Below, one piece after another: positions 34,078-64,000 of a stretch of DNA of 64,000 bases (the stretch's first letter is position 1; every line of letters starts with the position of its first letter). The DNA lies in the NCBI GenBank assembly GCA_902530985.1, contig CACACI010000002.1, forward strand, positions 18,461 through 82,460, written 5' to 3'. The notes beneath the pieces were generated by a model that made no database searches, was not told where the DNA came from, and saw only the letters and a program-made list of their open reading frames with translations. This DNA comes from an uncultured Alphaproteobacteria bacterium (GTDB taxonomy: Bacteria > Pseudomonadota > Alphaproteobacteria > Methylaequorales > Methylaequoraceae). Both the position numbers and the translations under genes were made by a program.

Positions 34078-34112
34078 TTATATTTCTCCTTAAATTTTTC
34101 ACATAGGTTATC

Positions 34113-34128: not shown

Positions 34129-34261
34129 AAATATTTATTTACCATATATTAAATAAAACCCCATCATATAGTTATTTTAGAGTAAAAATATTACAAAATG
34201 TAGTGTTAGATTTTTGACAAAAAAAAAGTTGGTTGAATGTAGATAATTTTAATCTTTTAAA

Positions 34262-34308
34262 GTATTAAAAAAAAAGATAAAGGAGGTTAAATTATTAACC
34301 TCCTTTAT
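34262..34308 (-). terminator. rho-independent terminator after the tandem short flagellin genes
   Basis: Perfect 14-bp stem ATAAAGGAGGTTAA / TTAACCTCCTTTAT (34277-34308) with a 4-nt loop, followed on the minus strand by a T-run (CTTTTTTTTT). Confidence 0.7.
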
Positions 34309-34328
34309 TTACAGATTGTCTTAGATTT

Positions 34329-35087: not shown

Positions 35088-35106
35088 AATTTTTTCTCCT
35101 TATGAT

Positions 35107-35862
35107 TTAGTTTAGTAAAGTTAATATATTAGCCATAGCTTGGTTTGCTTGCGCAACCATCGCTAAAGCAGATTGGTTTAGGATATTGCTTTGAGCTAAG
35201 TTCGTAGCTTCCTTAGCAAAATCAGTATCCTGAATTCTTGAAGCAGCAGAGCGTGCGTTGGCAGTTAATGAGTACATATTACTTTGATGCCCTTTTAACG
35301 CATTTATTCCCGCGGCCACTTGCCCCAAAGACGTTGATATAGTTCCCATTGCTGTATCAGCATTACTAACACCACTTTGAATGTTCGGTTTTTTTACCGC
35401 TCCAAGTTGTGAAAGTGTTCCTTTATTATTGATGGCAACTAAAAAAGTTGAAAGTAAATCTTTGTTATTTAATTTTGTATTACTAATTTTTTGTGCAGCT
35501 GAAACAATTTCATTCTCTTCAGATGTAATTGCTGCCTCTTGTTCAGGTGATAGAAAGTCAGCATTTAATTTTTGAACACCAAGCTCTCTTAATCTTGTAT
35601 TTAAAGTCGCTAATTCTAATAAAACAGCTTCTGTTGCTTGAAGAAAAGAAATTCCATCCTCAGCATTTCTTGCTGCAACATTAGCACTTCTAGCTTGAGT
35701 GGTTATATTACTTGCAACTGCTTGCCCAGCAGGGTCATAACCATTAAGTGTTCTAATTCCTGTTGAAAGACGACCCATTGATGCTGTCAATGTTCTTCTT
35801 GCTTTCGCAGAGGCGTTAACTGCATAAACGGCTCCATTTGTGTATGTCGAAAGTGATGGCAT
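35107..35862 (-). CDS. short flagellin (251 aa), tandem paralog of 34329-35087
   Basis: Same N- and C-domain motifs (GRLSTGIRTLNGYDPAGQAV..., IQDTDFAKEATNLAQSNILNQSALAMVAQANQ). GGAG RBS. Confidence 0.8.
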   Translation of the reverse strand: MPSLSTYTNGAVYAVNASAKARRTLTASMGRLSTGIRTLNGYDPAGQAVASNITTQARSANVAARNAEDGISFLQATEAVLLELATLNTRLRELGVQKLNADFLSPEQEAAITSEENEIVSAAQKISNTKLNNKDLLSTFLVAINNKGTLSQLGAVKKPNIQSGVSNADTAMGTISTSLGQVAAGINALKGHQSNMYSLTANARSAASRIQDTDFAKEATNLAQSNILNQSALAMVAQANQAMANILTLLN

Positions 35863-46574: not shown

Positions 46575-46748
46575 TTAAATACTTAAATCATACATTCTAA
46601 TTTTAGATGAATATTTAGCTAACTTTCGTATTATTGATATATTATTTGGATCTAATGATAATTTCTTATTAAGGTTGTCTATTTTTAGACCGATACTAGA
46701 AAGTAATAATTCTTTCTCTTGATTGATTGAAATTGATAAATCATCCAT
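46575..46748 (-). CDS. small hypothetical protein (57 aa), trimmed from the 82-aa track ORF
   Basis: An internal ATG at 46748 lies exactly 11 nt downstream of a sigma-54 motif. Sequence MDDLSISINQEKELLL...DPNNISIIRKLAKYSSKIRMYD. Confidence 0.3.
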   Translation of the reverse strand: MDDLSISINQEKELLLSSIGLKIDNLNKKLSLDPNNISIIRKLAKYSSKIRMYDLSI

Positions 46749-46759
46749 AATACCCCGGG

Positions 46760-46775
46760 TGCAATCAATATGCCA
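46760..46775 (-). promoter_or_regulatory. sigma-54 -24/-12 promoter motif TGGCATATTGATTGCA (minus strand)
   Basis: Exact consensus spacing. Overlaps the start codon of the divergent HAD gene (46770). Confidence 0.55.
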
Positions 46776-47453
46776 TATAAATATCCAGATAAGATTAAAC
46801 TTATTATTTTTGATGTTAATCAAACAATGTTTTCTTTAAATGAAATTAAAAAAAGGTTTGTTAAAAATAAATTAAAAAAAGTTTGGGTTGATATTTGGTT
46901 TAATTCTATCCTCAAGGAGGGTTTTTCATATTCATTAAGTGGAAATTTTATTAATTTCAAAACAATTGGAATAAATGAACTTAAAAAAATTTTTTTGCAA
47001 AATAATAGATCTATTAAAAGAGATATTTTGATTGACATTATGGAGGGATTTAAATATTTGGATGTTCATCCAGATATCTTAAAAACATTAAATTTTCTAA
47101 AAAATGAAAATTTAAAAGTAATAACACTCACTAACGGTTCAGCCATAAATACAAGAGTTCTATTAAAAAAAAATAAATTGGAAGGGTTAGTCGATCATTG
47201 CTTATCAATCGAAAATTTCAAGGTATGGAAACCTCACAAAAATGTTTATTTAAAAACCTGTAAAATCATGGAAATAAATCCTAAAAATTCTTTAATGATT
47301 GCTGCACACGGTTGGGACATCAATGGAGCAAAGCTTGCTGGCTTAAAAACAGGTTATATAAGTAGGTACGAAAAGAATATAAGTGATTTTTATTATAAAC
47401 CCGATTATTTTGGCAAAGATAGTTATGATGTAATTAGGCAATTAAAACTCTAA
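46770..47453 (+). CDS. HAD-superfamily hydrolase, haloacid dehalogenase type II-like
   Basis: 227 aa. Motif I IIFDVNQTMF, motif II TLTNGS, motif IV-like AAHGWDINGA. Confidence 0.7.
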   Translation: MPYKYPDKIKLIIFDVNQTMFSLNEIKKRFVKNKLKKVWVDIWFNSILKEGFSYSLSGNFINFKTIGINELKKIFLQNNRSIKRDILIDIMEGFKYLDVHPDILKTLNFLKNENLKVITLTNGSAINTRVLLKKNKLEGLVDHCLSIENFKVWKPHKNVYLKTCKIMEINPKNSLMIAAHGWDINGAKLAGLKTGYISRYEKNISDFYYKPDYFGKDSYDVIRQLKL

Positions 47454-48991: not shown

Positions 48992-50191
48992 ATGAATAAA
49001 ATTTCTAGTTTTGCAGTTCTTTTAATTGGATTCTGTTTTTCTTTTTTAATGTTAAATCCGATTGCTTTTGGTATATCGCTTAGCACAGGTATTTTAATTC
49101 TTACTTTCATTCATAATAATAAAGTCTTCAAACAATCAATTGAAATTATAAAAAAAACCAAAAGGCTCGATTTGTTAATATTTTTTTTATTTTTAATTTC
49201 ATTTTCTTTGGCTTCTTACAACTCAATCCAGATTAGCAGGTCAATACCTGTAATAATTTATTTAATATTATTTATTTTATTTGCCTTTGTAATTCATTTA
49301 ATATTTTCTGGAAATAAAAAATCTTTAGAATTAATCTTTAAATATTTTACATTAAGTCTTTTAGCTAACTCATTAATTATTTTCTTTTATAATATAACAA
49401 ACTATGAATTGGGATTTGATTTAATAAAGTTCAAGGGGTACATGAGTTTAATTTCATTGCTTACAATAATTAATTTCTTTTTTTTTAAATCAAAATTAAA
49501 TCTTATTTCAATAGCCGTTTTAATACCAAATATTTTTATGACTGGTTCAAGTTCGAGCATTTTAGGATTAATATGTGGATTTACTTTTTGTCTTAGTTAT
49601 TTAGTATTTAAAAAATATCTAAAATTTAAAAACAAAAAAATAATGCTAACGATTATTATATTAGTTATAGTTCTTCCTTCAATATTATTTTTTTCAGAAA
49701 AACTTCCTGGAAAATTTGACGATGAGTCAATTAAAAACTTCGAATACATTATACCCATTCAACTTATTGACCCTCACCGACAATTTATATGGGGTTTTTC
49801 AATAAACAAATTTAAAGATAAACCTTTGTTTGGACATGGTCCAGATTCATCTAATTTTATAGAAGGAAGTCAAATAGATATTGGCTCAGAACATACTGGT
49901 GACATGAACTTTATACCAAGTCATCCTCATAATTTCTTAATCGAATTACTGCTTGAAACTGGGATCATTGGAACCTTTTTATTTATAATTTTACTATTAA
50001 ATATAAACTCAAAGATTTGGAATTTAAATTCAAATACAAAGTTTAGGTTATTTCTAATTTTTTTTAATTCTTATTTTTGGTGCTCTTCATTAGTAAATTT
50101 TTCGTTTTGGCTTGGTTGGTGGCAAGGAAGTTACTATCTGCTACTTAGTTTGATAGCATCAAAAGGGTTTATCGAAAGAAAAATAAATTAA
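48992..50191 (+). CDS. O-antigen ligase / O-antigen polymerase family (Wzy_C) membrane protein
   Basis: 399 aa, about 10-12 TM helices. A large loop is followed by SHPHNFLIELLLETGIIG, typical of the WaaL/PglL/Wzy_C family. Confidence 0.7.
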   Translation: MNKISSFAVLLIGFCFSFLMLNPIAFGISLSTGILILTFIHNNKVFKQSIEIIKKTKRLDLLIFFLFLISFSLASYNSIQISRSIPVIIYLILFILFAFVIHLIFSGNKKSLELIFKYFTLSLLANSLIIFFYNITNYELGFDLIKFKGYMSLISLLTIINFFFFKSKLNLISIAVLIPNIFMTGSSSSILGLICGFTFCLSYLVFKKYLKFKNKKIMLTIIILVIVLPSILFFSEKLPGKFDDESIKNFEYIIPIQLIDPHRQFIWGFSINKFKDKPLFGHGPDSSNFIEGSQIDIGSEHTGDMNFIPSHPHNFLIELLLETGIIGTFLFIILLLNINSKIWNLNSNTKFRLFLIFFNSYFWCSSLVNFSFWLGWWQGSYYLLLSLIASKGFIERKIN

Positions 50192-50260: not shown

Positions 50261-50276
50261 TGGCATAAAAATTGTA
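50261..50276 (+). promoter_or_regulatory. weak sigma-54-like motif TGGCATAAAAATTGTA
   Basis: Correct -24 element and spacing, but the -12 element reads GT instead of GC. Confidence 0.3.
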
Positions 50277-50322
50277 CAAAGCTTGTGTGTCAAACATTAA
50301 TCAATCATCTGAAAGAAATGAA

Positions 50323-51975
50323 ATGAATTCAATGGTTTCTGGTAATAATATTGATATTATATCAAAATTTTCTGCAATAATTAAAGATAAAAATAATTTC
50401 AAATCAGTTAGACTCCAAGGTCAAATTTATTTTAAAAATAAATATAATAGAAATAATAAATCTGATTTAGGTAATCTCTTAATGGCGGCCAATGATTATT
50501 CAATCGGAGACCCATTAAGTTCACTTAAAAGGCTTAGATTTATAATTAAAAATGATCCAAAATGTTCTTCAGCACATAATTTATATATAAAAATTGTTTT
50601 AAAAATAGGTCAGAACAAATTAATTGAAAATGCTCTTAAAGATGCAGTTAGGTATATCCCAAATAACCATTCATTTTTAAGTATGTGGGGTAAACATCTA
50701 CTTTTTGATGGAAAAAAGTTTGAAGCACTAGAATATTTAGAAAAATCAGTTGAAATGAATCCTCAAGATTGCTCTTATTGGATCGATCTAGGTTTTTGTT
50801 ACTATATTACAAGAAATATAAAGATGGCGACTTTATGTCTTGAAACTGCCAAAAAAATTAATCCAAATCACTTAAGATGCTTGAATTTTGCCCCACTATT
50901 ATTTCAAGAGGAATCCAAGTATGATGAAGCTATAAAAATTCATGAATACGCTTTAAATTTATATCCAGGTGATAATGCAATTATTACAGATCTTGCAATG
51001 TTATACCTAAAAGTAGGTAAAAAAAAAGAAGGATATAAACTGTATCATTCAATTAAACCATCCAGAAGATCTAATTTCTACAAACTAATAGATATTAAAA
51101 AAACTTCATTCAAAAAAAATCATATAAAGGCAATTGAGGCTATTGAAGATCTAAATAAAACTCATCTATCAGTAAGTAAAAAATATAGAATTTTAGTTTT
51201 CTTAGAACAAGGTTGTGGCGACATATTAAATTTTTATAGATTTTTAGACCCTCTTATAAAAAAAGGACATTCAATAACAGTCCTAACACATCAGAAACCT
51301 ATGATACCTCTTTTAAAGTTTTATGTACAAAGTGAAAAGATAAATTTACTTTCAGAAATTAAATATGAAGATATTAAAAGTTTTCAATATAAAACCTTTA
51401 TTCTCAATATCCCACATCTATTGAATATTGAGAAAAAGCCTCCTCCCCCTATCTTATTTTATTTAAAAGAATTAAAGAAAAATAAAAAGAACTTGGTTAC
51501 TCGATTAAGAAAATTTTTATCAACTAAAAAAAAAAATATTGGAGTTTCATGGAAAGGAAATAAAAGGCATCTTTATGATGAATCAAGATCAATTGATTTA
51601 AAGTTATTTAGCAAAATATTTGAAAATAAAAAGAATAATTTTTTTATAATAGATAAAGAAATAAGCAATAAAGAAAGAACTTTTCTATCTAAATTTAACA
51701 ATATTGTATTTTGTGACGAATTAATTAGTGATTGGAGTGATACTGCAGTAATTGTATCAGAATTAGATGAGGTGATTTCTGTTGATACCTCATTAGCTCA
51801 TATTTCTGGAACATTAAATAAACCAACACAAATCTTAATAGCTAAAGATCCTGATTGGAGATGGGGTTTAAAAGGAATGCAAACAGAATGGTATAAATCT
51901 GTTAGATTAAAAAGGCAAGCTAATCCAGACAATTGGACAGATGTTATGACTAGTTTATGTGATGAATTAAAATAG
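50323..51975 (+). CDS. TPR-repeat protein fused to a GT-B (GT9/heptosyltransferase-like) glycosyltransferase domain
   Basis: The N-terminal half has TPR-like repeats. The C-terminal half has GVSWKGNKRH...VISVDTSLAHISGTLNKPTQILI...DWRWG. I prefer the in-frame ATG at 50323 to the TTG at 50272. Confidence 0.65.
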   Translation: MNSMVSGNNIDIISKFSAIIKDKNNFKSVRLQGQIYFKNKYNRNNKSDLGNLLMAANDYSIGDPLSSLKRLRFIIKNDPKCSSAHNLYIKIVLKIGQNKLIENALKDAVRYIPNNHSFLSMWGKHLLFDGKKFEALEYLEKSVEMNPQDCSYWIDLGFCYYITRNIKMATLCLETAKKINPNHLRCLNFAPLLFQEESKYDEAIKIHEYALNLYPGDNAIITDLAMLYLKVGKKKEGYKLYHSIKPSRRSNFYKLIDIKKTSFKKNHIKAIEAIEDLNKTHLSVSKKYRILVFLEQGCGDILNFYRFLDPLIKKGHSITVLTHQKPMIPLLKFYVQSEKINLLSEIKYEDIKSFQYKTFILNIPHLLNIEKKPPPPILFYLKELKKNKKNLVTRLRKFLSTKKKNIGVSWKGNKRHLYDESRSIDLKLFSKIFENKKNNFFIIDKEISNKERTFLSKFNNIVFCDELISDWSDTAVIVSELDEVISVDTSLAHISGTLNKPTQILIAKDPDWRWGLKGMQTEWYKSVRLKRQANPDNWTDVMTSLCDELK

Positions 51976-52089: not shown

Positions 52090-52105
52090 TGGTACGAATA
52101 TTGCT
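52090..52105 (+). promoter_or_regulatory. sigma-54 -24/-12 promoter motif TGGTACGAATATTGCT upstream of the plus-strand sugar operon
   Basis: Matches TGGYACG-N4-TTGCW. 37 nt lie before the ATG at 52143. Confidence 0.6.
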
Positions 52106-53285: not shown

Positions 53286-54605
53286 ATGGAACATTTAAAT
53301 GACATAAGAAAGAAAATTTCAGATTTAGTTATTCACTATTCGAATATAAAATACGCAAAAAAAAATTTTACTCCTGGATTTGATAAAGTTCAAGTTTCAG
53401 GAAAAGTTTTAGATCATGACGAAACAGTTAATATGGTTGATGCTGCTTTAGATGGGCATTTAACTACTGGAAGATTTAACATAGAGTTTGAAAAAAAATT
53501 GTCTAGATTTCTTAATACGAGATCTTTACTCACCGTGAATTCTGGATCCTCAGCTAATTTAATTGCCTTTTCCAGTCTTACTTCACCCAAACTTGGTTCA
53601 AGAGCTATTAAACCAGGAGATGAAGTAATCACTGTTGCTGCTGGATTTCCTACGACAATTAATCCAATACTTTTGTATAAAGCTATTCCTGTTTTTGTAG
53701 ATGTCAAAATGGGTAATTATAATATTGATGAAGAAAGAATAGAAAGAGCAATAACTAAAAAAACAAAGGCTATTATGCTTGCTCACACCCTTGGAAATCC
53801 CTTTAATTTGAGCACTATTATAAAAATTTGTAAAAAATATAATTTATGGCTAGTTGAAGATTCTTGTGATGCACTTGGTTCAAAATTTAATGGCCAGAAC
53901 GTTGGTACTTTTGGAGATTTTGGAACTTTAAGTTTTTATCCAGCTCACCACATTACAATGGGAGAAGGAGGAGCAGTTTTTACCAATAATATTAAATTAA
54001 AGAAAATTGCAGAATCAATAAGAGATTGGGGTAGAGACTGTTTTTGTGCACCAGGTAAGGACAACTCATGTGGAAGAAGGTTTTGTTGGAAACTTGGCAA
54101 TCTTCCAGATGGTTATGATCATAAATACATTTATTCTAATTTAGGTTTTAATCTTAAAATTACAGATATGCAGGCTGCATGTGGTTTAGGACAATTAAAA
54201 AAACTAAATAATTTTATTAAAAAAAGAAATTATAATTTTAATTACTTACTTAAAAAGTTTGGAAGTTTAGAAGAATTTTTTATTTTGCCGGAAAAAACAA
54301 TTAATTCTGAACCTTCATGGTTTGGCTTCCCGTTAACCATTCGAGATAATAGATATTTTAATAGAAATGAATTGATTAAATATTTAGAACATAAAAATAT
54401 TCATTCAAGACTTTTATTTGCAGGAAATGTTTTAAAACAACCTTATATGATTGGGCAAACATACAGAGTTTCAGGAACATTAGAAAATACAGAAAAAATC
54501 TTATTTGATACATTTTGGTTAGGAGTTTTTCCAGGTTTAGAAATTCAAATGCTTGATTATGTAATAGATTCAATTTCAGAATATATATTATTCAAAAAAA
54601 AATAA
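53286..54605 (+). CDS. rfbH: NDP-4-keto-6-deoxyhexose 3-dehydrase (RfbH/DdhC/E1-type, DegT family)
   Basis: 439 aa. In the DegT-family motif SFYPAHHITMGEGG, His occupies the position of the usual PLP lysine. A Cys-rich segment CFCAPGKDNSCGRRFC is consistent with an Fe-S site. Confidence 0.75.
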   Translation: MEHLNDIRKKISDLVIHYSNIKYAKKNFTPGFDKVQVSGKVLDHDETVNMVDAALDGHLTTGRFNIEFEKKLSRFLNTRSLLTVNSGSSANLIAFSSLTSPKLGSRAIKPGDEVITVAAGFPTTINPILLYKAIPVFVDVKMGNYNIDEERIERAITKKTKAIMLAHTLGNPFNLSTIIKICKKYNLWLVEDSCDALGSKFNGQNVGTFGDFGTLSFYPAHHITMGEGGAVFTNNIKLKKIAESIRDWGRDCFCAPGKDNSCGRRFCWKLGNLPDGYDHKYIYSNLGFNLKITDMQAACGLGQLKKLNNFIKKRNYNFNYLLKKFGSLEEFFILPEKTINSEPSWFGFPLTIRDNRYFNRNELIKYLEHKNIHSRLLFAGNVLKQPYMIGQTYRVSGTLENTEKILFDTFWLGVFPGLEIQMLDYVIDSISEYILFKKK

Positions 54606-54674
54606 TTGTTTAAAACAAAAATCTATTATTATGAAATTAATAAAAGATAAAAAATAAAAAATAGAGAAACACTA

Positions 54675-55850
54675 TTGAGAAAAAGAAATAATATTTTTAT
54701 TATAATTCCTGCTAGAGGTGGATCGAAATCAATTAAAAGTAAGAATCTCCATATTGTAAACAAAAAACCGTTATTACAATGGACATTAGAGGAATCAAAA
54801 AAGGTAAAATCAGTCAGCAGAATAATTGTATCAACAGATGATAAGAATATAAAGGAATTTGCAAAAGAGTTTTGTGTAGATGTGGTTGATAGACCTAAAC
54901 AAATCAGTAATGACAACTCATCATCTGAAAGTGCGATTCTTCACACCTTAAAAAATTATAATGAAAAAAATATTATTCCAGAAATTATTGTTTTTTTACA
55001 ATGTACGTCACCATTAATATCATTTTGTGATATTGAAAAAGGAATAAAATATTTAAATGAAAACAGGCTTGATTCAACATTTGCATGCGCTTCTTTCGAT
55101 GGCTTTATTTGGAAAAAGAATAATAAACAATTTGAAGGAATCAATCATGATCATAGTAAGAGGTTAATGAGACAAAAACGATCAATAGAATATTTAGAGG
55201 CTGGTTCAATTTATATTATGAGAACAAAAAGTTTTTTGAAAGATAAATATCGTTTTTGCGGAAAATGTGAACCTTTCTTAATTGATAAGAAAAAAGTGTT
55301 AGACATTAATGATTATCAAGATGCTGACATAGCAGAAATTTATTTAAAAAATATTATTGTAAAAAATAAAATAATTTTAAATCAACCAAAAGCATTGATA
55401 ATGGATTTTGATGGAGTGCATACTAATAATAAAGTCTATTTAGATTCTAATGGCAATGAATTAGTCTTATGCTCACGAAGCGATGGTATGGGGCTAAAGC
55501 AATTAAAAGAAAATTCAAATATTAAATTATTAATTATTTCTAATGAACAAAATCAAGTGGTTCAAAAAAGAGCAACAAAATTAAATATTGAATGTATTCA
55601 AACTAATGGGAAAAAGATTGAAATACTAGATAACTGGCTAAAAGATAATACTCTAAAATATGAGGAGGTCATTTTTATAGGAAATGATATCAATGATATT
55701 GATTGTATTCAAAAAGTAGGAATAAGCTTTTGTCCGAATGACGCAGAGAATTTAATTAAGGAAAATGTGGATCACGTATTAAAACAAAGTGGGGGTAATG
55801 GGGCTATTAGAGAATTAACTAATATTTTATTATCTAAGATGAATGATTAA
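54675..55850 (+). CDS. neuA: fusion protein: CMP-nonulosonate/N-acylneuraminate cytidylyltransferase (N-terminal) plus KdsC-type HAD phosphatase (C-terminal)
   Basis: N-terminal IIIPARGGSKSIKSKN...LQCTSPL. C-terminal LIMDFDGVHTNN...SRSDGMGL...FIGNDINDI (HAD motifs I-IV). TTG start. Confidence 0.8.
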   Translation: MRKRNNIFIIIPARGGSKSIKSKNLHIVNKKPLLQWTLEESKKVKSVSRIIVSTDDKNIKEFAKEFCVDVVDRPKQISNDNSSSESAILHTLKNYNEKNIIPEIIVFLQCTSPLISFCDIEKGIKYLNENRLDSTFACASFDGFIWKKNNKQFEGINHDHSKRLMRQKRSIEYLEAGSIYIMRTKSFLKDKYRFCGKCEPFLIDKKKVLDINDYQDADIAEIYLKNIIVKNKIILNQPKALIMDFDGVHTNNKVYLDSNGNELVLCSRSDGMGLKQLKENSNIKLLIISNEQNQVVQKRATKLNIECIQTNGKKIEILDNWLKDNTLKYEEVIFIGNDINDIDCIQKVGISFCPNDAENLIKENVDHVLKQSGGNGAIRELTNILLSKMND

Positions 55851-56706
55851 AATCGGTAAAAATAATATTGGTAACTCTTATCCAATCTATGTAATTGCTG
55901 AAATTGGTATCAACCACAATGGAAACATAGAATTAGTGAAAACGTTAATTGACGAAGCCCATTTAGCAGGTGCTAATGCTGTTAAATTTCAAAAAAGAAC
56001 TCCACAAATTTGCGTTCCTGAAGAACAGAAATTAATTGAAAAAGATACTCCGTGGGGCAGGATGTCTTATTTAGAATATAAGGAAAAAATTGAGTTATCT
56101 AAAGATAATTATGAATTTATCGAGAAATATTGTAAAAAAAAAGGAATAGACTGGTTTACTTCATGTTGGGACATAGACTCCCTCGAATTTATAAAAAATT
56201 TTAATCCTGTTGCCTACAAGATTGCCTCAGCTTCATTAACTGACAAAATGCTATTAAAAGAACACTCTAAATTAAAAGAGCCTATAATTCTTTCTACTGG
56301 TATGTCTACCATGAAAGAGATAAAAAAAGCAGAACAAATTTTAAGTCACACTAATTTACTAATTGCGCATTCCACGAGTGCATATCCTTGTAAGTCTGAG
56401 GAACTTAATCTAAATGTAATCCAAACATTTGTTAAAGAGTTTGATCATCCAATTGGTTACTCTGGACACGAACTTGGAATTCAAACAACTCTGGCTGCAT
56501 GCGTTTTAGGAGCGTGTTTTATCGAAAGACACTTTACATTAGACAGGTCGATGTGGGGCACTGATCAAGCTGCATCACTTGAGCCGCCAGGTTTGAAAAA
56601 GTTAGTCAGAGATATTAGAGTTTTAGAAAAATCTTTAGGTGATGGAATAAAGAAAGTTTATGATTCAGAAAAAAGAATAAGAGATAAATTAAGATTGGTG
56701 AAATGA
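55843..56706 (+). CDS. neuB: NeuB-family nonulosonate (sialic-acid-type) synthase lacking the C-terminal SAF domain
   Basis: VIAEIGINHNGN...ANAVKFQKR...YKIASASLTD...STGMST...GYSGHE...IERHFTLDRSMWGTDQAASLEP. Ends at 287 aa, about 60 aa short of typical NeuB. Confidence 0.8.
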   Translation: MIKIGKNNIGNSYPIYVIAEIGINHNGNIELVKTLIDEAHLAGANAVKFQKRTPQICVPEEQKLIEKDTPWGRMSYLEYKEKIELSKDNYEFIEKYCKKKGIDWFTSCWDIDSLEFIKNFNPVAYKIASASLTDKMLLKEHSKLKEPIILSTGMSTMKEIKKAEQILSHTNLLIAHSTSAYPCKSEELNLNVIQTFVKEFDHPIGYSGHELGIQTTLAACVLGACFIERHFTLDRSMWGTDQAASLEPPGLKKLVRDIRVLEKSLGDGIKKVYDSEKRIRDKLRLVK

Positions 56707-57365
56707 AAAAAAAGATATTAAATATCAAAAAAAGTTTTGATTACGAAAATGCTTATATGCTCTCTGCCCCGGTAGAAAGAATAGGTAAGCTTGTAAGTAG
56801 ATTTGAGTTATTTAATAAGATAAAAGCTATACCAGGTGAAATAATAGAATGTGGAGTTTTCAAAGGATCCTCTTTATCTCAATTTTTAAAACTAAGGGCA
56901 CTTTATGGACATTCGTCCTCAAAAAAAATCATAGCATTTGACACTTTCGGAAAATTCCCTGAAAAATGTTCCTCTGATGATAAAAAGTATTTGAAAAATT
57001 TTACTAATGAAGCTGGCAATCAATCTATTGAAAAAAATGAATTATTAAAAATATTTAAACAATTGGGTGTTGATAAAAATTTAGACTTGATAAAGGGAAA
57101 TATTTTAAAAACACTTCCACAATTTATAAAATCAAATAAACATATAAAAATCTCTTTATTACATGTCGATGTAGATACTTATGAACCTACTAAACTCTGT
57201 TTAGAAATCCTATATCCTCATGTAGTGAAGAATGGTGTGGTTATCTTAGATGATTATGGTGCTTTTCCTGGTGCTAATAAAGCAATTGACGAATTTTTTA
57301 GTAATAAACCAAATGTTATTAAAACCTTACCTTACTCAAGTTATATAAGTTATGTCATTAAATAG
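56703..57365 (+). CDS. TylF/macrocin-O-methyltransferase family SAM-dependent methyltransferase
   Basis: GEIIECGVFKGSSL...LLHVDVDTYEPTK...GVVILDDYG. Confidence 0.75.
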   Translation: MKKKILNIKKSFDYENAYMLSAPVERIGKLVSRFELFNKIKAIPGEIIECGVFKGSSLSQFLKLRALYGHSSSKKIIAFDTFGKFPEKCSSDDKKYLKNFTNEAGNQSIEKNELLKIFKQLGVDKNLDLIKGNILKTLPQFIKSNKHIKISLLHVDVDTYEPTKLCLEILYPHVVKNGVVILDDYGAFPGANKAIDEFFSNKPNVIKTLPYSSYISYVIK

Positions 57366-58839
57366 GTATTTAAAACTTCTAGAACAATTTAATAATAAAA
57401 GTCTCAGTGTAAAATCAAAAAAACTGCTGGTCCTTTCTAATGATTCTAATGACTTTATAATTAATTGTTCTATTGCTCATGTTCTTGTAAAACTTGGCCA
57501 CAAAGTGACTTTATTTATCCAAAACTCCGATCAAAGTCTGAAAAAAAACTTCAATGGATTTAGTTTTCAAAGTATGTTTGCATCAATAATTAAAGTTATT
57601 ATTAAGAATGAAATTTATGTTGAATACGAAAAAGAAGTTGTTGGCAAGAATGCAAATATTTCGACAAAATTAAGAAAGAAAATTTATCGTCAGACTGAAG
57701 AGGATATTCAAAGGATTTTGAAAAATCCTCTTTATGAAAAGAATCAGAAAAATAAAAAGTTATTTGAGAAAATTCAAAAAAGAAACTTGGATTTTGCCAT
57801 TAAATTCAAATCATTTGTTAAAAAAAATAAATTTGATAATTATATTATTGACAGTGGATCATGGGCAGAATATGGAGTGGCGTTCTCAATTCTCCAAGAA
57901 CTAGGTAAAACAATAACTTGTTACGGTTATAAAAACGACAAAAACAGTATTATGATCTCAAAAAATACTCCTTTCAATGATTTGGATATTGATGAAGCTT
58001 GGAAGAAAATGAAAAACAAATCTATTCGTAAATCGTATTTTACAATTGAAAAGATCTCAAAAAAGAAATTTTATACAAAAGATGTTTTCTTAAATTTTCA
58101 TACCGAAGATCCATTAAATAAAGAAAAAGTTTATAAAAGATTATTTTTAAAAAAAAATAACTACACAATTTTAATTCTTACTAATCTTGCCTTTGATACA
58201 ACTGTTCTAACAAAAAAAACAAACCACTTGTTTAAATCTCATTTTGATTGGTTAAAAAAAACAATCAGCTTTTTGGCACAAAAAAATAACTGTAATATTA
58301 TTATTAGACCACATCCTGCTGAAAAATTAACAAATTGCAATATGTCATGTGAAAGGTATATCAATAATTATTTAGATAAGCTTGGCGACAATTTTACCAT
58401 ACTCCCAAGTCAAACTTCAATAAATACCTATGGTTTGATAGACATAGCAGATTTAGGTTTAGTATATTCCTCAGATATAGGTTGGGAAATGGTTTTGAAG
58501 AATAAACCAGTGATTTCTGGTGGAATGGGAGCTGCGTGGGGTAAAAATATTCAATATGATCCAAAAAGTTTGAGGGATTATTTTAATAAAATTAACTTTT
58601 TTGTTAAAAATAAAAATTTCACTTTACCTAATTTAAAAAAAACAAATGCAGTAAAATTTATGAATTTTTACATGCAAGAAGTACCTAAAACTTTTCCTTT
58701 CCCTTTGTTTGAATATTGGAATAACAATACATTTAATAAAGCAGTAAAAATTTTTCAAAGTTCAACAATATCTAAAAAATATAAAACAACTTTTGAAAAT
58801 TTAAGTAATCCTTTATTACGAAAAAAAGGTGTTATTTGA
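57352..58839 (+). CDS. putative glycosyltransferase, capsule-biosynthesis KpsS/KpsC-like (ulosonic-acid transferase-like)
   Basis: 495 aa. The C-terminal half IIIRPHPAEK...INTYGLIDIADLGLVYSSDIGWEMVLKNKPVISGG resembles the Capsule_synth family. Weak call. Confidence 0.4.
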   Translation: MSLNRYLKLLEQFNNKSLSVKSKKLLVLSNDSNDFIINCSIAHVLVKLGHKVTLFIQNSDQSLKKNFNGFSFQSMFASIIKVIIKNEIYVEYEKEVVGKNANISTKLRKKIYRQTEEDIQRILKNPLYEKNQKNKKLFEKIQKRNLDFAIKFKSFVKKNKFDNYIIDSGSWAEYGVAFSILQELGKTITCYGYKNDKNSIMISKNTPFNDLDIDEAWKKMKNKSIRKSYFTIEKISKKKFYTKDVFLNFHTEDPLNKEKVYKRLFLKKNNYTILILTNLAFDTTVLTKKTNHLFKSHFDWLKKTISFLAQKNNCNIIIRPHPAEKLTNCNMSCERYINNYLDKLGDNFTILPSQTSINTYGLIDIADLGLVYSSDIGWEMVLKNKPVISGGMGAAWGKNIQYDPKSLRDYFNKINFFVKNKNFTLPNLKKTNAVKFMNFYMQEVPKTFPFPLFEYWNNNTFNKAVKIFQSSTISKKYKTTFENLSNPLLRKKGVI

Positions 58840-58844
58840 ATAAA

Positions 58845-60311
58845 TTACTTGAATATAAATTTGTCATAATCAGGAAGATTATTGGGGTCAATACCAAGAC
58901 CTTTTTTTAACAAATTTTTATTTCTGGTATTATTCAATCTATTATCAACACTTCTAATTAAATCTTTACAGAAGTAGTCAATCATAATTTGAATATTTCC
59001 TTCACCAAATTCTTTTAAATTGAAAGAAAGGTTTGACTGTTGTTTCTCTATAAGAAATTTTGCAATTTCATACTCAATTTCAATTATATTTCCATATTTT
59101 ATGCTGCATAAATAAAAATTTTCTTCATATCTAAATCTGGCTTCCTTACTAACGACAAAATCACTCTTTTGAATTATTTCTCTCGTTTTTTTATCGTATG
59201 TAATTTTAAATGGAACGAAATTCCTAAGTGATTTTCCATGAATCTTGCCATTAATTATTGGACCAACCATCAATGGATCTTTTCCATTAAGTTTTCCCGA
59301 ATAAGCTTTAGCATCAACTCTGCATCCACTATTACACACATATTTATAATCACATTTTTTACATTCATTAAAAGCTAATGATCCATCATGCCAATTTCTT
59401 AGTTTTTTATATTGTTCAGATAAATCAATTTCATCATTAAATACATTTCCTAATCTTTCTGAAGAGAGATGTACACACGATCTTATGTCTCCATTGGGTA
59501 AGATATTTAACCTATGACCTCTTTGAGTAGGACACCCTCTTCCAACAAAATCTGCATACTTTTGAAGATCACCCAGCAAACATAGGGGATAGCTTACTAT
59601 TGTACTAACATCAATTCCAAACTCATCTCTCGCTTTTATAAGTTGATCTAAACACTCTAATGCTGATTTTTTTGATAATATATTTGGATTTTCATCATTT
59701 GTATTTTCATAATCTACCTCTGTTTCGTAATCAGGCCCAACTATCCGTGTGGCAAAAATCCTCTGACATCCTAATTTACTAGCAAGTTTTGCTGTCAGAT
59801 AAACTTGATTTTTATTAGAGTTGTGAACAACCATATTTGCACTAACCCTAAACCCAACCTTTATAGCGTCTTCAATTCCACTTGTTATTCTATCAAATGC
59901 ATTTTTACTATTAACCAATTTATTTGTAACATCAGACAAATACGATGGTAAACTTGTCAAAATATGATCACAACCCGAGTCAAATAATCTTTGTAGTCTC
60001 TCTATTCTTTTGGCTTTTATTGAAAGATTACTATTTACAGAAGTTGAAATATTATTTTCTTTAAGTTTTTTGTTAAGATATAAAAGCATCTCAAAGTTTG
60101 CAAAAGCTTCACCACCAGATGATATAACATGAAAGACTTCAAAATTTATAAATTGTCTTACTAATTGATCTATTTTACCTTTATCTAGTTTTAAAGATCC
60201 CATCGAAAGATCTCTGTCAAAATTAAAACAATAAACACACTTTTCATTACAAATATCAGTAATTTCTAAATCTACTGTTGTTGGCGTTCTATAAATTCTT
60301 CGAGGTCTCAT
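58845..60311 (-). CDS. radical SAM enzyme with a canonical SPASM domain and a C-terminal extension of about 130 aa
   Basis: CNEKCVYC (CX3CX2C). SPASM motifs C-X13-G-X4-C (GCPTQRGHRLNILPNGDIRSC) and CX2CX5CX3C (CKKCDYKYVCNSGC). Confidence 0.85.
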   Translation of the reverse strand: MRPRRIYRTPTTVDLEITDICNEKCVYCFNFDRDLSMGSLKLDKGKIDQLVRQFINFEVFHVISSGGEAFANFEMLLYLNKKLKENNISTSVNSNLSIKAKRIERLQRLFDSGCDHILTSLPSYLSDVTNKLVNSKNAFDRITSGIEDAIKVGFRVSANMVVHNSNKNQVYLTAKLASKLGCQRIFATRIVGPDYETEVDYENTNDENPNILSKKSALECLDQLIKARDEFGIDVSTIVSYPLCLLGDLQKYADFVGRGCPTQRGHRLNILPNGDIRSCVHLSSERLGNVFNDEIDLSEQYKKLRNWHDGSLAFNECKKCDYKYVCNSGCRVDAKAYSGKLNGKDPLMVGPIINGKIHGKSLRNFVPFKITYDKKTREIIQKSDFVVSKEARFRYEENFYLCSIKYGNIIEIEYEIAKFLIEKQQSNLSFNLKEFGEGNIQIMIDYFCKDLIRSVDNRLNNTRNKNLLKKGLGIDPNNLPDYDKFIFK

Positions 60312-60315
60312 TGAT

Positions 60316-61215
60316 TTATTGATCTATATCCTTTCTAGAAATAATTTGCATAAGGGAAAAATTTCCTTCAGGCACATCAAGTTTTTTAAAATCAACTACA
60401 TTTAGTTTACATTTTTTTAGTAAATTTAGAATTGATTTTTTTGAAAAAAAATTTATATGTTCGTGCCAATGTCTTTTATCTTGATAGGATTTTTCTTTAT
60501 TATTAATTTCAATCATAAGTTTTTCATAAGGAATTTCGACATATAACAATGACCTTGAACTCATATTTTTTTTTATATCAATTAGAGTTTCAGATGGATA
60601 GGAAACGTGTTCAAGAACATTACTACAAATTATTAAATCATATGTTTTATTTTTTAAATCAGATTTTTTGACCTTAACAGCACCTTTAACAGTTTTTGAG
60701 TCTCCTAAATCATAAATATGAATGCTTTTATTATTATTTTTAAACGGCGTATTTTTACCAGTATCACCTCCCCAGTCCAAAATGCTTACTGGCAATTTCA
60801 CATTTCTTTCGATAAATTCCTCTACTTTATCTAGGTACGTGATACCTTTTATTAGTTCAGTATTTCTTTTTTTATAATTTTTTTCATATTTTTCTCGAAG
60901 TTTAGTATACCGACTGTTTCTATAACCAGTGTAAAGGTTTGAAAGTTCTTTTTCTGAAAATCTGATATCTAGAAATAAAAAATTACACTTACTACACATC
61001 AGAGTATTGCATATAGAGTAAGTCTGTCCCTTACTAATTGTTTTAAGCCCCCAACTCTTGTCTATTTTAATTTGCTTCCAATTAAAAACCCTTTCAGCAA
61101 TAAAAGGCATTAAAACTGCTGGACTGTTTTTTAATTTTTTTGAACCACAGCAAATACAAAATTCAGCAATTCTATCTTTAGGTAAATTTTTAAAATCTTG
61201 TTCAATTTGTTTCAT
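60316..61215 (-). CDS. SAM-dependent methyltransferase with an N-terminal zinc ribbon
   Basis: CICCGSKKL...CSKCNFLF (4 Cys). ILDWGGDTG and DLIICSNVLEHV class I methyltransferase motifs. Confidence 0.6.
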   Translation of the reverse strand: MKQIEQDFKNLPKDRIAEFCICCGSKKLKNSPAVLMPFIAERVFNWKQIKIDKSWGLKTISKGQTYSICNTLMCSKCNFLFLDIRFSEKELSNLYTGYRNSRYTKLREKYEKNYKKRNTELIKGITYLDKVEEFIERNVKLPVSILDWGGDTGKNTPFKNNNKSIHIYDLGDSKTVKGAVKVKKSDLKNKTYDLIICSNVLEHVSYPSETLIDIKKNMSSRSLLYVEIPYEKLMIEINNKEKSYQDKRHWHEHINFFSKKSILNLLKKCKLNVVDFKKLDVPEGNFSLMQIISRKDIDQ

Positions 61216-63106
61216 TCGTAAAATCTCTCATTGAATATGATTTTTTGTCAATTGGACCTGAGATCAATTTTTTTAATTCTTTAATCTCTAATAAAGGTGT
61301 CATATCTTCTATTGGTGAGGAAACCATTGTCCCATTATCCAATTTATATGCCGAACATTTAGGAATTAATTTTTCATCTTTATTTACGAAAATTTCATAA
61401 ATAATGAGTTCATCCGTGTTCAAAGTTTTTTTGATTTTATTAAAATCAGAATATTTTTTTATAACATATGATTTGATACCAATTGCTCTAGCAATCCTAG
61501 ATATAGAGGACGTTTCCATTCCAGAATTTTTGTTAATCCCTATAAATCTTCCTTTAAAATAGTTTTTTTGAGTATTTCTTATAGATACATAACCTTGATT
61601 ATTTATTAGAAAAATCTTTGCTTTACATTTGTTTGTTTTTAAAGTTTGTAACTCTTGAAGATTCATCATCGCACTTCCATCACCTTCATATAAAAATAAG
61701 TTTTTTTTTATTTGTGAACTAGCACCAACTAAAGCTGGGAACCCATAACCCATTGAACCTAACCCTGTTGTAAGAAATGTTTTTTGATTTCTTTTATTTT
61801 CAAAATGCGTATAAAAAACTTCAATACATAGACCTGAACTTCCTGTAACAATAGTACTATTTGGTGGAATTATTTTTGACAATAAATTTACAGTGCTATA
61901 AATACTCATACTATTCTTTTTTCTTAATTCGCTTTTTCCATACTTTGTTTTAAGATTGTTGCAAAAATTTATCCATCTAGTATTTTTATTTTTATATTCA
62001 TGATCTTTTAACTTGACTAATAAATCCGGCAAAAAATATTTACAATCAAATTTTAGTTTTTTAAATCTTCTGGGATGCTTCTTTAGTTCACCCTCATCAA
62101 TATCTATACAATAGATTACTGCATTTTTTGCAAAATTATCAGGATTGAAGGCCGTAACAATTCTATCTAATCTTGCCCCAATACTAATTAATAAATCACA
62201 GTTTTGAATTGTTAAATTAGCATTTCGTTTTGCCACTACCCCAGGTCTTCCAATGTAAAGAGGATCATTAAAAGCTAAAAGATCAATCATTGGCCAAGTA
62301 ACGCATACAGGAATATTTGAATACTTAATCAATTCAATAGCTAATTTTTCTGATTTTGAACTTTTAACTCCATGCCCCATTAAAAATAATGGCTTCTTAG
62401 ATTTTATAATCTTATTTATTAAATCATTGGGTATTTGTTTTTTAGCCTCAATTATTTCATTCTTCAGGAAAGGTTTATAATCAAAAGGAATTTTAACTTT
62501 TTGGGATTGAATGTCTAAAGGAATATCAATCAAACATGGTCCAGGTCTTCCATTTTTTGAAAGATTTACAATTTTGCTAAGTTTCTGTAAAAAATTCTGA
62601 TGATCTGTAATTGTTTCAGAATACTTGGTTATCCCTTTGACCATCGAAACTATATCAACTTCTTGTGGACCCTTTTGCCTTAATTTCTTTTCAAAATTAA
62701 TATCATCCGTTTTAACTTGACCTGAAATGACCAAAAGAGGAATCGAATCAATCCATGATCCAGCTATACCTGTTATCGAGTTAGTAGCTCCGGGACCAGT
62801 TGTTACCAATGCAACCCCTATTCCTTTGTTGAGCCTTGAATATGCTTCGGCAGCAATTACTGCAGATTGTTCATTATGAGTACAAATACATTTAATATCT
62901 GGGTGTCGTCCTACTGCATCAACAAGAAACATATTTCCACCACCAGGCACAAGAAAGACAGTGTTTGTTCCAATTTTGGAAAGATAATCAAAAAGAAGAT
63001 AAGAAAGTGTATCTTCTTTTTGTTTTAAATTAATTCCCCTAAATTCTAAATTTTTGTCATCTAAATTATTTATTAGAGGTTCATTATTATAATTAATTTT
63101 ATCCAT
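61202..63106 (-). CDS. thiamine-diphosphate-dependent enzyme, acetolactate-synthase-large-subunit-like
   Basis: 634 aa. N-terminal Pyr domain (VFLVPGGGNM...NEQSAVIAAEAYSR...TGPGATN). ThDP motif GDGSAMMNLQELQT...INNQGY. Confidence 0.85.
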   Translation of the reverse strand: MDKINYNNEPLINNLDDKNLEFRGINLKQKEDTLSYLLFDYLSKIGTNTVFLVPGGGNMFLVDAVGRHPDIKCICTHNEQSAVIAAEAYSRLNKGIGVALVTTGPGATNSITGIAGSWIDSIPLLVISGQVKTDDINFEKKLRQKGPQEVDIVSMVKGITKYSETITDHQNFLQKLSKIVNLSKNGRPGPCLIDIPLDIQSQKVKIPFDYKPFLKNEIIEAKKQIPNDLINKIIKSKKPLFLMGHGVKSSKSEKLAIELIKYSNIPVCVTWPMIDLLAFNDPLYIGRPGVVAKRNANLTIQNCDLLISIGARLDRIVTAFNPDNFAKNAVIYCIDIDEGELKKHPRRFKKLKFDCKYFLPDLLVKLKDHEYKNKNTRWINFCNNLKTKYGKSELRKKNSMSIYSTVNLLSKIIPPNSTIVTGSSGLCIEVFYTHFENKRNQKTFLTTGLGSMGYGFPALVGASSQIKKNLFLYEGDGSAMMNLQELQTLKTNKCKAKIFLINNQGYVSIRNTQKNYFKGRFIGINKNSGMETSSISRIARAIGIKSYVIKKYSDFNKIKKTLNTDELIIYEIFVNKDEKLIPKCSAYKLDNGTMVSSPIEDMTPLLEIKELKKLISGPIDKKSYSMRDFTNETN

Positions 63107-63134: not shown

Positions 63135-63150
63135 TGCAATTATAATGCCA
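63135..63150 (-). promoter_or_regulatory. sigma-54 -24/-12 promoter motif TGGCATTATAATTGCA (minus strand) upstream of the ThDP-MT-rSAM operon
   Basis: Exact consensus spacing. 28 nt lie before the ATG at 63106. Confidence 0.6.
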
Positions 63151-63161: not shown

Positions 63162-64000
63162 GTGAAGCCCAAGAAACTTAGTATTTTTAATATTGGTGAG
63201 GAAGATTTAGAATTAATTCTCGCCAAGTTAAAAACATCAATCGTAAAGCTTAAAAATTCTAAAATCTTTATAACTGGTGGAACAGGATTTTTTGGAAAAT
63301 CTATATTAAGCGGATTATTACATCTAAATTTATCATTAAATTTAAATATTAAAATTTTTGTTTTATCAAGAAATCCAAAAAAATTTAAAAGAAAGTTTCC
63401 TGAGGTAAATAAATATAAAGAACTATTTTTTATTGAAGGTAATATTGTTAACTTTTCAACAATTGAAAATGGTTTTACTCATATTATTCATGGTGCTACA
63501 GAAACCTCAATTGAAGCACATCAAAAGATTTCCGATTTATCCGAAGTTATTATTGATGGCACTAGAAATATATTAAATTTTGCTAATAAAAAAAAAATTA
63601 ATAATATCCTTTATATTTCTTCGGGATCAGTTTATGGAAAACAGTCCATAAAAGACTTTATAAAGGTTAATGAAAACTCTGGTTTTTTTTTAAACTCGTC
63701 AAACTTTACTGATGCAAGCGGAATATTGAAAAAGTCTGCTGAATTACTTTGTAATTATTGGGCATCTGAAGCACCAGAAAAAACAATTAAAATTGCTAGA
63801 TGCTTTTCATTTGTAGGCCCATGGCTTCCCATTGACACTCATTTTGCTATAGGAAATTTTATAAAATCTGCAACAACAAATTCCGACATAATTATTCATA
63901 GCGATGGATCCTCGTTAAGAAGTTATTTGTATACATCAGATCTTGTTATTTGGTTGTTTAGAATTTTATTATTTGAAAAAAAGTTTCTTACCATAAATGT
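63162..64000 (+). CDS. NAD-dependent epimerase/dehydratase (SDR) family protein, 3'-truncated by the window edge
   Basis: Not in the ORF track, because the frame stays open to the window end. My translation gives KIFITGGTGFFGKSIL (Rossmann) ...ILYISSGSVYG. There is no in-frame ATG, so the start is a GTG at 63162 or 63123 and is uncertain. Confidence 0.7.
   Translation, partial: MKPKKLSIFNIGEEDLELILAKLKTSIVKLKNSKIFITGGTGFFGKSILSGLLHLNLSLNLNIKIFVLSRNPKKFKRKFPEVNKYKELFFIEGNIVNFSTIENGFTHIIHGATETSIEAHQKISDLSEVIIDGTRNILNFANKKKINNILYISSGSVYGKQSIKDFIKVNENSGFFLNSSNFTDASGILKKSAELLCNYWASEAPEKTIKIARCFSFVGPWLPIDTHFAIGNFIKSATTNSDIIIHSDGSSLRSYLYTSDLVIWLFRILLFEKKFLTIN

Follow-up and report, generated by a model that had tools for sequence, protein, structure and literature searches.

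Which sugar is made by the glycan island at the end of a contig from an uncultured alphaproteobacterium, and where does the branch on that sugar come from? The question concerns a stretch of 64,000 nucleotides (here called the window) that covers positions 18461-82460 of contig CACACI010000002.1 (C2; 82,479 bases) in the assembly GCA_902530985.1 (G000; 1.12 Mb, 78% complete), and, within it, a gene for an RfbH-type sugar 3-dehydrase and one for a thiamine diphosphate (ThDP)-dependent enzyme. An initial annotation had taken this pair to point to a yersiniose-like sugar, in which pyruvate supplies a two-carbon branch. It is very likely that the island makes a C4-acyl-branched CDP-3,6-dideoxyhexose, because the ThDP enzyme matches YerE-like carboligases, is linked to rfb genes and is separated in trees from acetohydroxyacid synthase (AHAS); the expectation of an unusual branched deoxysugar, formed by RfbH/E1 and a YerE-like carboligase, is thus retained. 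For the branch itself, we favor, with slightly better than even confidence, a ulosonic acid made by a NeuB-family synthase, which would be decarboxylated and grafted as a C6-C8 branch on C4 of the CDP-3,6-dideoxyhexose. The synthase, together with a cytidylyltransferase-HAD fusion, lies between the rfbH and ThDP genes and was omitted from the initial annotation. Branched-sugar synthesis by YerE-like enzymes is established (PMC12247030, PMC4753412, PMC4509608, PMC8533242), and most of the more than 200 predicted enzymes of this kind are described as having no known product (PMC12247030).

The 3-dehydrase and the ThDP carboligase

The genes on which the argument turns are:
53286..54605, plus strand: RfbH/E1 CDP-4-keto-6-deoxyglucose 3-dehydrase, predicted (NF011936, PDB 3bcx)
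54675..55850, plus strand: predicted CMP-ulosonate cytidylyltransferase fused to a KdsC/Kdn-9-P-type HAD phosphatase (PF02348, TIGR01670)
55843..56706, plus strand: short NeuB-family ulosonate synthase dependent on phosphoenolpyruvate (PEP), 287 aa, candidate source of the donor (PF03102, 262 bits; tree)
61202..63106, minus strand: predicted YerE-like ThDP carboligase of a NeuB-coupled clade (domains, tree, context)
63162..64000, plus strand: YerF-like extended short-chain dehydrogenase/reductase (SDR), cut by the contig end (PF01370; full length in the relatives L010-L012)

The rfbH and ThDP genes belong to convergent operons on opposite strands and are separated by 6.6 kb. A plus-strand run (GT2-rfbH-neuA/HAD-neuB-tylF-orf495, GT2 being a family 2 glycosyltransferase) and a minus-strand run (ThDP-methyltransferase-radical SAM) meet head-on at 58839/58845, and the SDR gene diverges from the ThDP gene across 55 bases. 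Gene order and strands are identical in the three closest relatives (L010-L012), whose proteins are 89-94% identical to those of the window genes (G424, G427 and G430 show the same identities and are counted as these three), so that misassembly as the source of the mixed strands is ruled out.

The product of 53286-54605 (439 aa) scores 698.9 bits against the RfbH equivalog NF011936, for a cut-off of 423, and aligns end to end with E1, the CDP-6-deoxy-hexulose 3-dehydrase of PDB 3bcx (564 bits, E 1.8e-168). The initial annotation had called it a 3-dehydrase from an active-site His and a Cys-rich segment, and both motifs are found where it placed them (SFYPAHH from residue 216 and DCFCAPG at 251). 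His221 aligns with E1 His220, the position occupied by Lys in the variant 3bb8. Cys194, Cys252, Cys254, Cys262 and His279 are identical to the aligned residues in 3bcx, and the ligands of the [2Fe-2S] center are presumably among them. Replacement of the Schiff-base Lys of aminotransferases by His is described as a feature of E1-type 3-dehydrases (PMC8987622). By these sequence features the protein is a genuine RfbH/E1 enzyme, predicted to carry out C3-deoxygenation, and its identity as an aminotransferase is rejected.

The initial annotation had also listed the genes that such a pathway would need and that the window lacks, and those for the early steps were located in the relatives. There, rfbF and rfbG directly follow the SDR gene in three of three cases, both over their cut-offs (421-427 and 450-458 bits). 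The contig stops 19 bases beyond the window, with no overlap between its end and any other contig of the assembly, and we infer that rfbF and rfbG lie just past that end in the window's genome. The E3 reductase was not recovered in the same way: no E3/DdhD fusion, with Fer2 and FAD/NAD domains in one chain, was found in the four incomplete genomes searched, where FAD_binding_6 matches fall in frames of 255-263 aa and Fer2 matches in frames of 111-113, 679-720 or 920-928 aa. SpnQ is reported to work with ferredoxin/flavodoxin and reductase pairs instead of E3 (PMC8987622), and, since no E3 was found here, it is reasonable to suppose by analogy that a general ferredoxin and ferredoxin reductase would substitute for it.

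The ThDP enzyme (634 aa) has all three TPP_enzyme domains, with Glu79, GDGSAMM at 475 and NNQGY at 502. Among the 25 NCBIfam models shown, it reaches no cut-off, the best being an AHAS model (321.8 bits, against 538.35 for TIGR00118). Its best PDB match is 8rph (319 bits), followed by 5ahk (247), with AHAS structures at 204 bits or less; 8rph is JanthE, a YerE-like carboligase (PMC12188165). The AlphaFold model (pLDDT 85) also has 8rph as its closest fold (Z 44.9 vs 43.6), a lead of 1.3 Z units in a comparison that does not discriminate function.

Loci of the ThDP enzyme outside its close kin (n = 120) were taken from metagenomes (the best 80 of 585 confirmed matches) and from a 400-genome phylum sample (40 of 96 matches, picked across the score range). 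Seven partial genes among these loci were left out of the tree, and loci with less than 1.5 kb upstream were left out of upstream counts. In the tree and alignments L144 stands in for JanthE (756 bits) and L154 for 5AHK (579 bits), which we take to be PpYerE, consistent with its PDB title (Pseudomonas protegens) and with rfbFGH beside L154; YerE of Yersinia, ErwE and MyGE lie outside the tree's sequence set. The window enzyme is nested in a supported clade (FastTree 0.996 and 1.0; SH-aLRT 95 and 100) apart from AHAS, and its grouping with AHAS is rejected by the approximately unbiased (AU) test (p 6.5e-5). At least one of rfbF, rfbG and rfbH is present in 38 of the 47 YerE-like loci of at least 15 kb, vs 0 of 11 AHAS loci. 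Within the order sample (42 genomes), a ThDP enzyme of this kind and a full-length RfbH occur in the same 6 genomes, and a seventh has a partial RfbH at a contig end.

That the protein is simply an acetolactate synthase present in the island by chance is exceedingly improbable. Its best NCBIfam labels are AHAS models, and automated names of its homologs read acetolactate synthase; however, the scores are far below the cut-off, the tree rejects the grouping, and the gene has as neighbors a methyltransferase and an SDR, with no ilvH. A separate ilvI fragment-ilvH-ilvC-leuA run, recognized from translations, lies on contig C36 of the same assembly. AHAS identity is therefore rejected by tree and context, as the initial annotation had anticipated in setting the enzyme apart from ilv genes. 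Altogether, on the basis of sequence, the ThDP enzyme is a YerE-like carboligase, predicted to transfer an acyl group to a ketone. Among the 30 plasmid matches listed of 1544, all are at most 33% identical and the annotated ones are ilvB/ilvG-like; no relative was found in viral contigs.

The donor of the branch

Within the clade of the window enzyme, a NeuB-family gene lies at most 3.6 kb upstream of the ThDP gene in 55 of the 59 loci with at least 1.5 kb upstream, and in 28 of these 55 it is within 100 bases and on the same strand. The same is seen in 1 of 21 loci of other YerE-like enzymes (one more abuts downstream) and in 0 of 13 AHAS loci. The NeuB profiles were built from the same loci as were counted, and six of six members checked match PF03102. 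Beside the sister group of YerE-like enzymes, an HpcH-type aldolase is found instead (7 of 21), in agreement with the aldolase-fed scheme of the literature (PMC9306805). Two architectures occupy the NeuB slot: a fusion of about 500 aa (NeuB-(SAF)-cupin), and a NeuB of about 288 aa with a stand-alone KdsC-like HAD protein. The nearest relatives with known context (L029, L033, L023 and L024) carry a 500-aa NeuB 7-20 bases upstream of the ThDP gene; nearer homologs (P0004-P0018, 52-76% identity) come without context. No CMP-transferase was found in the 120 loci, many of them short, except for one marginal match (E 4e-4). Pairing of a ulosonate synthase with a decarboxylating enzyme for 2-keto acids, and with no activating enzyme, is in keeping with the published scheme in which aldolases supply ErwE, MMAR_2332 or MyGE with long hydroxylated keto acids (PMC9306805).

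In three clade members without an adjacent NeuB gene, a NeuB of 502-507 aa is encoded elsewhere in the genome, so that the linkage can be lost and supply in trans is possible. No NeuB of about 500 aa was found in G000 or its three relatives. A profile of eight HpcH-type aldolases has no match among the open reading frames (ORFs) of G000, and none was found in L010-L012. No visible donor maker is then left other than the 287-aa NeuB. ORF annotation shows no BphI/BphJ-type aldolase-dehydrogenase pair in the island, for which no genome-wide search was made.

A recurring set of neighbors, consisting of a C-methyltransferase-like protein, a protein of about 170 aa without Pfam match (Nudix-like by eye) and a radical SAM/SPASM protein, is seen at the NeuB-cupin/ThDP loci L021, L023, L024, L027, L038, L065, L070, L075, L083, L132 and L135. 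In a sub-clade (L026, L063, L073 and L091), genes for a xylose-isomerase-like TIM barrel, a Gfo/Idh/MocA oxidoreductase and a classical SDR come after the ThDP gene, and in L026 a 246-aa NAD-binding oxidoreductase that could act as a partial E3 comes right after rfbH. At G424:C60 8041-8747 (L181 and L182), a NeuB-family gene is split over two frames, by a sequencing error or as a pseudogene.

Pyruvate, the donor expected by the initial annotation, can be weighed against residues of the enzyme itself. The residues of annotated IlvG, used as the reference for AHAS, are replaced in the window enzyme: Phe109, Val375, Gln377 and Trp464 (IlvG numbering) correspond to Pro147, Ser424, Leu426 and Thr512. 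Phe109 and Val375, which we take to be pyruvate-specificity residues, are kept in 13 of 13 AHAS and in L154, whereas the Val375 position is Ser in 58 of 62 NeuB-linked enzymes. Identity of the window enzyme to the 5AHK-like L154 is 27% (26.8%), compared with 33% to L144, and its grouping with L154 is rejected (AU p 4.5e-5).

The SDR, which would be expected to reduce the branch ketone, bears on the same question. It is present at the window edge as the initial annotation had it, with a start that is more likely GTG 63162 than 63123 (the GTG is conserved in L010-L012), but the Tyr of its YxxxK motif is replaced by Ser186; Ser is found in the three relatives too, and the Lys is retained. In an alignment of 44 SDRs, 18 of the 37 that come from the window, its kin and other NeuB-type loci (with the SDRs of L128-L130 counted in the NeuB-type clade) lack the catalytic Tyr, vs 0 of 7 others. 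YerF-like SDRs with Leu, Ile or Ser in place of Tyr (L021, L023, L024, L027, L038, L045, L065, L069, L070, L080 and L128-L131) are scattered over several separate branches in a quick tree, and each is encoded next to a ThDP enzyme of the NeuB-type clade; the Tyr was apparently lost several times.

A pyruvate-fed pathway ending in a yersiniose-like octose, reduced by the SDR and methylated, would account for the joint presence of RfbH, a YerE-like enzyme and a YerF-like SDR and for the lack of a dedicated donor gene abutting the ThDP gene, and several YerE-like enzymes are reported to take pyruvate in vitro (PMC12247030). We nevertheless consider it improbable: the enzyme is distant from L154 and rejected from its group, Phe109 and Val375 are replaced, its clade is coupled to NeuB, and the SDR lacks its Tyr in all four kin sequences, although the SDR beside the 5AHK-like enzyme retains it. 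The two-carbon, yersiniose-like branch is accordingly the part of the initial annotation that was abandoned.

Two interleaved modules and a proposed route

Between and beside the core genes lie others, some of which point to a second possible fate of the NeuB product:
56703..57365, plus strand: TylF-type O-methyltransferase (PF05711)
57352..58839, plus strand: 495-aa Capsule_synth-like protein, candidate CMP-ulosonate transferase (Atlas features)
58845..60311, minus strand: radical SAM/SPASM protein, CxxxCxxC at 21 (PF04055, TIGR04085)
60316..61215, minus strand: S-adenosylmethionine-dependent methyltransferase with N-terminal Cys pairs (PF13489, Methyltransf_23), overlapping the ThDP gene by 14 bases

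A NeuB synthase, a HAD phosphatase, a CMP-transferase and a candidate transferase are thus found in one operon. In the fusion protein, PF02348 covers residues 9-185, and TIGR01670 matches residues 240-390 with 106.5 bits, just under its cut-off of 106.95; the HAD domain also scores 108 bits with NF058599, below the cut-off of 180. The NeuB of the window is below the cut-offs of the NeuB and PseI equivalogs and has no SAF domain listed. The 495-aa protein has no Pfam match; Atlas features link it, as a lead, to clusters (score 0.97) in which 41% and 63% of the proteins carry PF05159, and its 30% homolog in locus L193 of genome G662 matches PF05159. In L193, a 46% homolog of TylF lies beside neuB, and a 42% homolog of the radical SAM protein is present; the conserved module of CMP-transferase, Capsule_synth-like protein, short NeuB, TylF and radical SAM protein spans 970-8576 there (G662:C38) and 54675-60311 in the window. 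Because this set exists in G662 without a YerE-like gene, the island is, as judged from gene content, two interleaved modules. The form of the CMP-ulosonate module that bears a radical SAM gene rests on this one outside example, since no homolog of the radical SAM protein was found at E 1e-50 in the 400-genome phylum sample, and the order sample yielded just the three kin. Either the two modules share a free ulosonate released by the HAD phosphatase, or the ThDP enzyme has changed its donor.

A number of observations weigh against a NeuB-made donor. The window NeuB lies 4.5 kb from the ThDP gene on the other strand, and it has its own outlet in the fused CMP-transferase and the Capsule_synth-like protein. 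Its nearest homolog beyond the three relatives, at 53-54%, is that of L193, where its neighbors are a CMP-transferase, a Capsule_synth protein, TylF and a radical SAM protein of the same kind; the sole match to the ThDP profile in that genome (96% complete) is at AHAS level (331 bits). Short NeuB homologs in five further loci (L194-L198) have a CMP-transferase nearby and no ThDP match in 19 kb. In the ThDP enzyme, 4 of 12 signature residues of the clade are lost, including the Arg at position 133, when the clade median is 12 of 12. The NeuB-cupin type of synthase is not exclusive to the clade, as a NeuB of about 517 aa also occurs in G415, whose YerE-like enzyme is linked to an aldolase. The loci counted share ancestry, so that their numbers are not numbers of independent events, and no rfbF or rfbG over the cut-off was found in the 78% complete G000. 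Finally, a roomier pocket is compatible with pyruvate, which JanthE and MyGE are described as accepting (PMC12188165, PMC9306805).

Alternatively, the modules may be independent, the NeuB product going only to CMP-ulosonate and the ThDP enzyme drawing on a different keto acid, bigger than pyruvate and supplied by central metabolism or an unlinked enzyme. The existence of the NeuA-NeuB-TylF-Capsule_synth-radical SAM set on its own in G662, the loss of the four signature residues and of the adjacent NeuB-cupin fusion found in relatives, and the incompleteness of the genome (78%) all speak for it. The 22-kb island of the three relatives, however, holds no other donor-making gene. The enzyme keeps 8 of the 12 signature columns, including Asp135, Gly422-Ser423-Ser424 and Glu429, so that the Gly-Ser-Ser-Gly pocket motif is intact, and the same short NeuB subfamily feeds ThDP operons elsewhere, the next sequence after L193 in the NeuB tree being the ThDP-coupled L067. 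Independence of the modules is therefore regarded as a serious but doubtful alternative.

It could also be that RfbH makes an ordinary unbranched 3,6-dideoxyhexose and that the ThDP enzyme works only on the ulosonate, which it might, for example, decarboxylate or extend ahead of CMP activation, in concert with the methyltransferase and the radical SAM protein of its operon. The radical SAM gene, whose homolog belongs to the ulosonate module, is transcribed together with the ThDP gene, and CMP-linked higher-carbon ulosonic acids that are unexplained have been described in Magnetospirillum (bioRxiv 10.64898/2026.04.20.719630). Against this, YerE-like enzymes track rfbF, rfbG and rfbH both in the loci surveyed (38/47) and in the order (6/6 genomes), and an unbranched sugar would need a C4 reductase when the only SDR of the island lacks its Tyr. 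This explanation is therefore held to be quite improbable.

In the favored route, in which the ulosonic acid serves as donor, RfbF and RfbG (genes known from the three relatives) would first provide CDP-4-keto-6-deoxyglucose, from which RfbH would remove the C3 hydroxyl with pyridoxamine 5'-phosphate and its [2Fe-2S] center, with electrons probably coming from ferredoxin and ferredoxin reductase by analogy with SpnQ. The short NeuB would join PEP and an aldose phosphate, and the HAD domain would dephosphorylate the product to a free ulosonic acid of 7-9 carbons. The ThDP enzyme would then decarboxylate this acid and transfer its C6-C8 acyl group to the C4 ketone, giving a branched CDP-sugar of 12-14 carbons. 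With its Tyr missing, the SDR may fail to reduce the branch ketone in the usual manner. The product may be methylated by the neighboring methyltransferase and would be attached by the GT2 or a tetratricopeptide repeat (TPR)-GT9 protein. In addition, the NeuA domain would activate the same ulosonate with CMP for transfer as a second sugar by the 495-aa protein.

The initial annotation had counted two or three methyltransferases and predicted a methylated sugar. Two are identified by Pfam (56703-57365 and 60316-61215), the latter with 38-40% homologs in the ThDP loci L024, L027 and L054; the third is rejected, the candidate being the radical SAM/SPASM protein, with no B12-binding domain listed. 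Methylation of the product is plausible for one methyltransferase only, as TylF and the radical SAM protein travel with the separate CMP-ulosonate module in G662.

If this large and widespread clade does use ulosonic acids derived from PEP as donors, branched sugars would gain a new feeder route, monosaccharides of 12-14 carbons not yet isolated would be predicted, and annotations as "acetolactate synthase" and "N-acetylneuraminate synthase", otherwise read as amino-acid and sialic-acid synthesis, would be corrected. ThDP enzymes that add acyl units to ketones are also sought as biocatalysts. Krug et al. 2024 is said to list more than 200 YerE-like clusters. That work and Lanza et al. 2024 lie outside the literature searched, in which no description of NeuB-fed sugar branching was found.

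Promoters, destination and distribution

The following features bear on when the island is expressed and where its product goes:
48992..50191, plus strand: O-antigen-ligase-like membrane protein, possible lipopolysaccharide (LPS) destination (PF04932 Wzy_C, 63 bits)
50272..51975, plus strand: TPR repeats and a GT9-like domain, candidate protein (flagellin) glycosyltransferase (TPR Pfams)
52090..52105, plus strand: sigma-54-like box before the GT2-rfbH-neuA-neuB-tylF-orf495 operon, with one mismatch to TGGCA and exact in L010-L012
52143..53282, plus strand: GT2 glycosyltransferase, candidate for the CDP-sugar, 3 bases 5' of rfbH (PF00535)
63135..63150, minus strand: sigma-54 -24/-12 box, 44 bases before the ThDP start, identical in three of three relatives

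With TGGCA-N6-TTGCW as the sigma-54 -24/-12 pattern, 6 sites are counted in the window vs 0.34 expected, and 15 in the genome vs 3-9 in five simulations. The pattern is also found before flagellin and flgG, and the relatives carry a box before rfbF and before the GT2 operon; rpoN was found in all three of them and not in G000. Sharing of sigma-54 boxes with flagellar genes is a hint of flagellar glycosylation. TPR-glycosyltransferase genes flank the island, with fliB nearby in L011 and L012. For 50272..51975, the GT9 assignment is a lead from Atlas features, which match clusters with PF01075 on 38-53% of members (score 0.96-0.97). No flippase or polymerase is seen in the island. LPS may instead be the destination, given the O-antigen-ligase-like gene located two genes ahead of GT2 and the presence of lpxC in four of four genomes. 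On balance, a flagellar glycan is somewhat preferred to O-antigen. Taken to its limit, the favored route would have one ulosonic acid used twice, as a CMP-sugar and as a C-C-linked branch, giving a 13-14-carbon sugar whose unreduced branch ketone closes into a ring, and hence a C-linked two-ring sugar placed on the flagellum under sigma-54 control; this extended picture is speculative, and we think it unlikely as a whole.

Further sites and flagellar genes of the window were noted. A sigma-54 box at 25338-25353 (plus strand) lies 27 bases before a 286-aa ORF (25365-26225) with no NCBIfam match at E 1e-25, which may be a modifier in the flagellar regulon. Another, at 46760-46775 (minus strand), is near a short ORF fragment (46575-46823) where G424 has an intact 588-aa gene, so that the gene may be truncated in the window. 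FlgK (37860-42950; 1696 aa) has a very long insertion between conserved ends and is of equal length in G424. The region 32518-35862 encodes a 519-aa flagellin, with two flagellin-like ORFs of about 250 aa upstream, one with a weak flagellin match and the other with none at E 1e-25.

The ThDP enzyme is found at an identity of at least 89% in 4 of the 16 genus genomes searched. In G415, a member of the same family, similar TPR, GT2 and rfbH genes enclose a YerE-like enzyme of another kind (35-36% identity), which is linked to an aldolase. Its locus (L183, G415:C28, 5524-19499) contains TPR, GT2, an HpcH-type aldolase, the different YerE-like enzyme, radical SAM, rfbH and GT2, with sigma-54 boxes, and GT2 homologs thus flank rfbH there as well. 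As this aldolase-linked version occupies a similar site, the site appears to take alternative cassettes, and, with the island in only 4 of 16 genus genomes, it looks like a swappable surface-glycan cassette, which would be relevant to phage recognition.

Comparison with known systems

Among characterized enzymes, JanthE (8rph) is the closest solved structure to the ThDP enzyme (30% identity over 596 aligned residues, including the C-terminal extension). It differs by a CDG motif, where the window has GDG, and its homologs L144 and L146 lie outside the window's clade, without a NeuB neighbor. SpnQ is likewise a [2Fe-2S] 3-dehydrase without a dedicated E3, but its substrate is a dTDP-2,6-dideoxy sugar, whereas the RfbH of the window would use E1's CDP-sugar, with a putative electron donor.

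The CMP-ulosonate module resembles Kdn-type modules in its short NeuB, KdsC/Kdn-9-P-like HAD domain and cytidylyltransferase. It differs in the TylF and radical SAM/SPASM proteins that travel with it and in being interleaved with a CDP-dideoxyhexose pathway.

The yersiniose A pathway (DdhA-D, YerE and YerF), as presented in PMC12247030 and PMC4509608, shares with the window an RfbH/E1 ortholog, ThDP-dependent branching at C4 and a YerF-like SDR. The window departs from it by the low identity of its ThDP enzyme to the 5AHK-like group, the absence of Phe109 and Val375, the lack of a DdhD/E3 among the genomes searched, the Tyr-less SDR and the distribution of the genes over four transcription units on both strands. 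The pathways of erwiniose (ErwE/F/I/J), caryophyllose (MMAR_2332) and gastriose (MyGE), as far as they are set out in PMC9306805, are like the window in their core genes for CDP-4-keto-3,6-dideoxyglucose, their YerE-like ThDP enzymes and YerF-like SDRs, and in having an aldol-type enzyme dedicated to making the donor, a long hydroxylated 2-keto acid. In those pathways the enzyme is a pyruvate aldolase, whereas in the window's clade it is a PEP-dependent synthase of the NeuB family; in the window, moreover, the synthase is shared with, or part of, a CMP-ulosonate module, and the SDR without Tyr and the failure to find an E3 are differences here too. What sets the window apart is that the adjacent synthase is lost, a CMP-ulosonate module is interleaved, the SDR has no catalytic Tyr and the promoters are of flagellar type.

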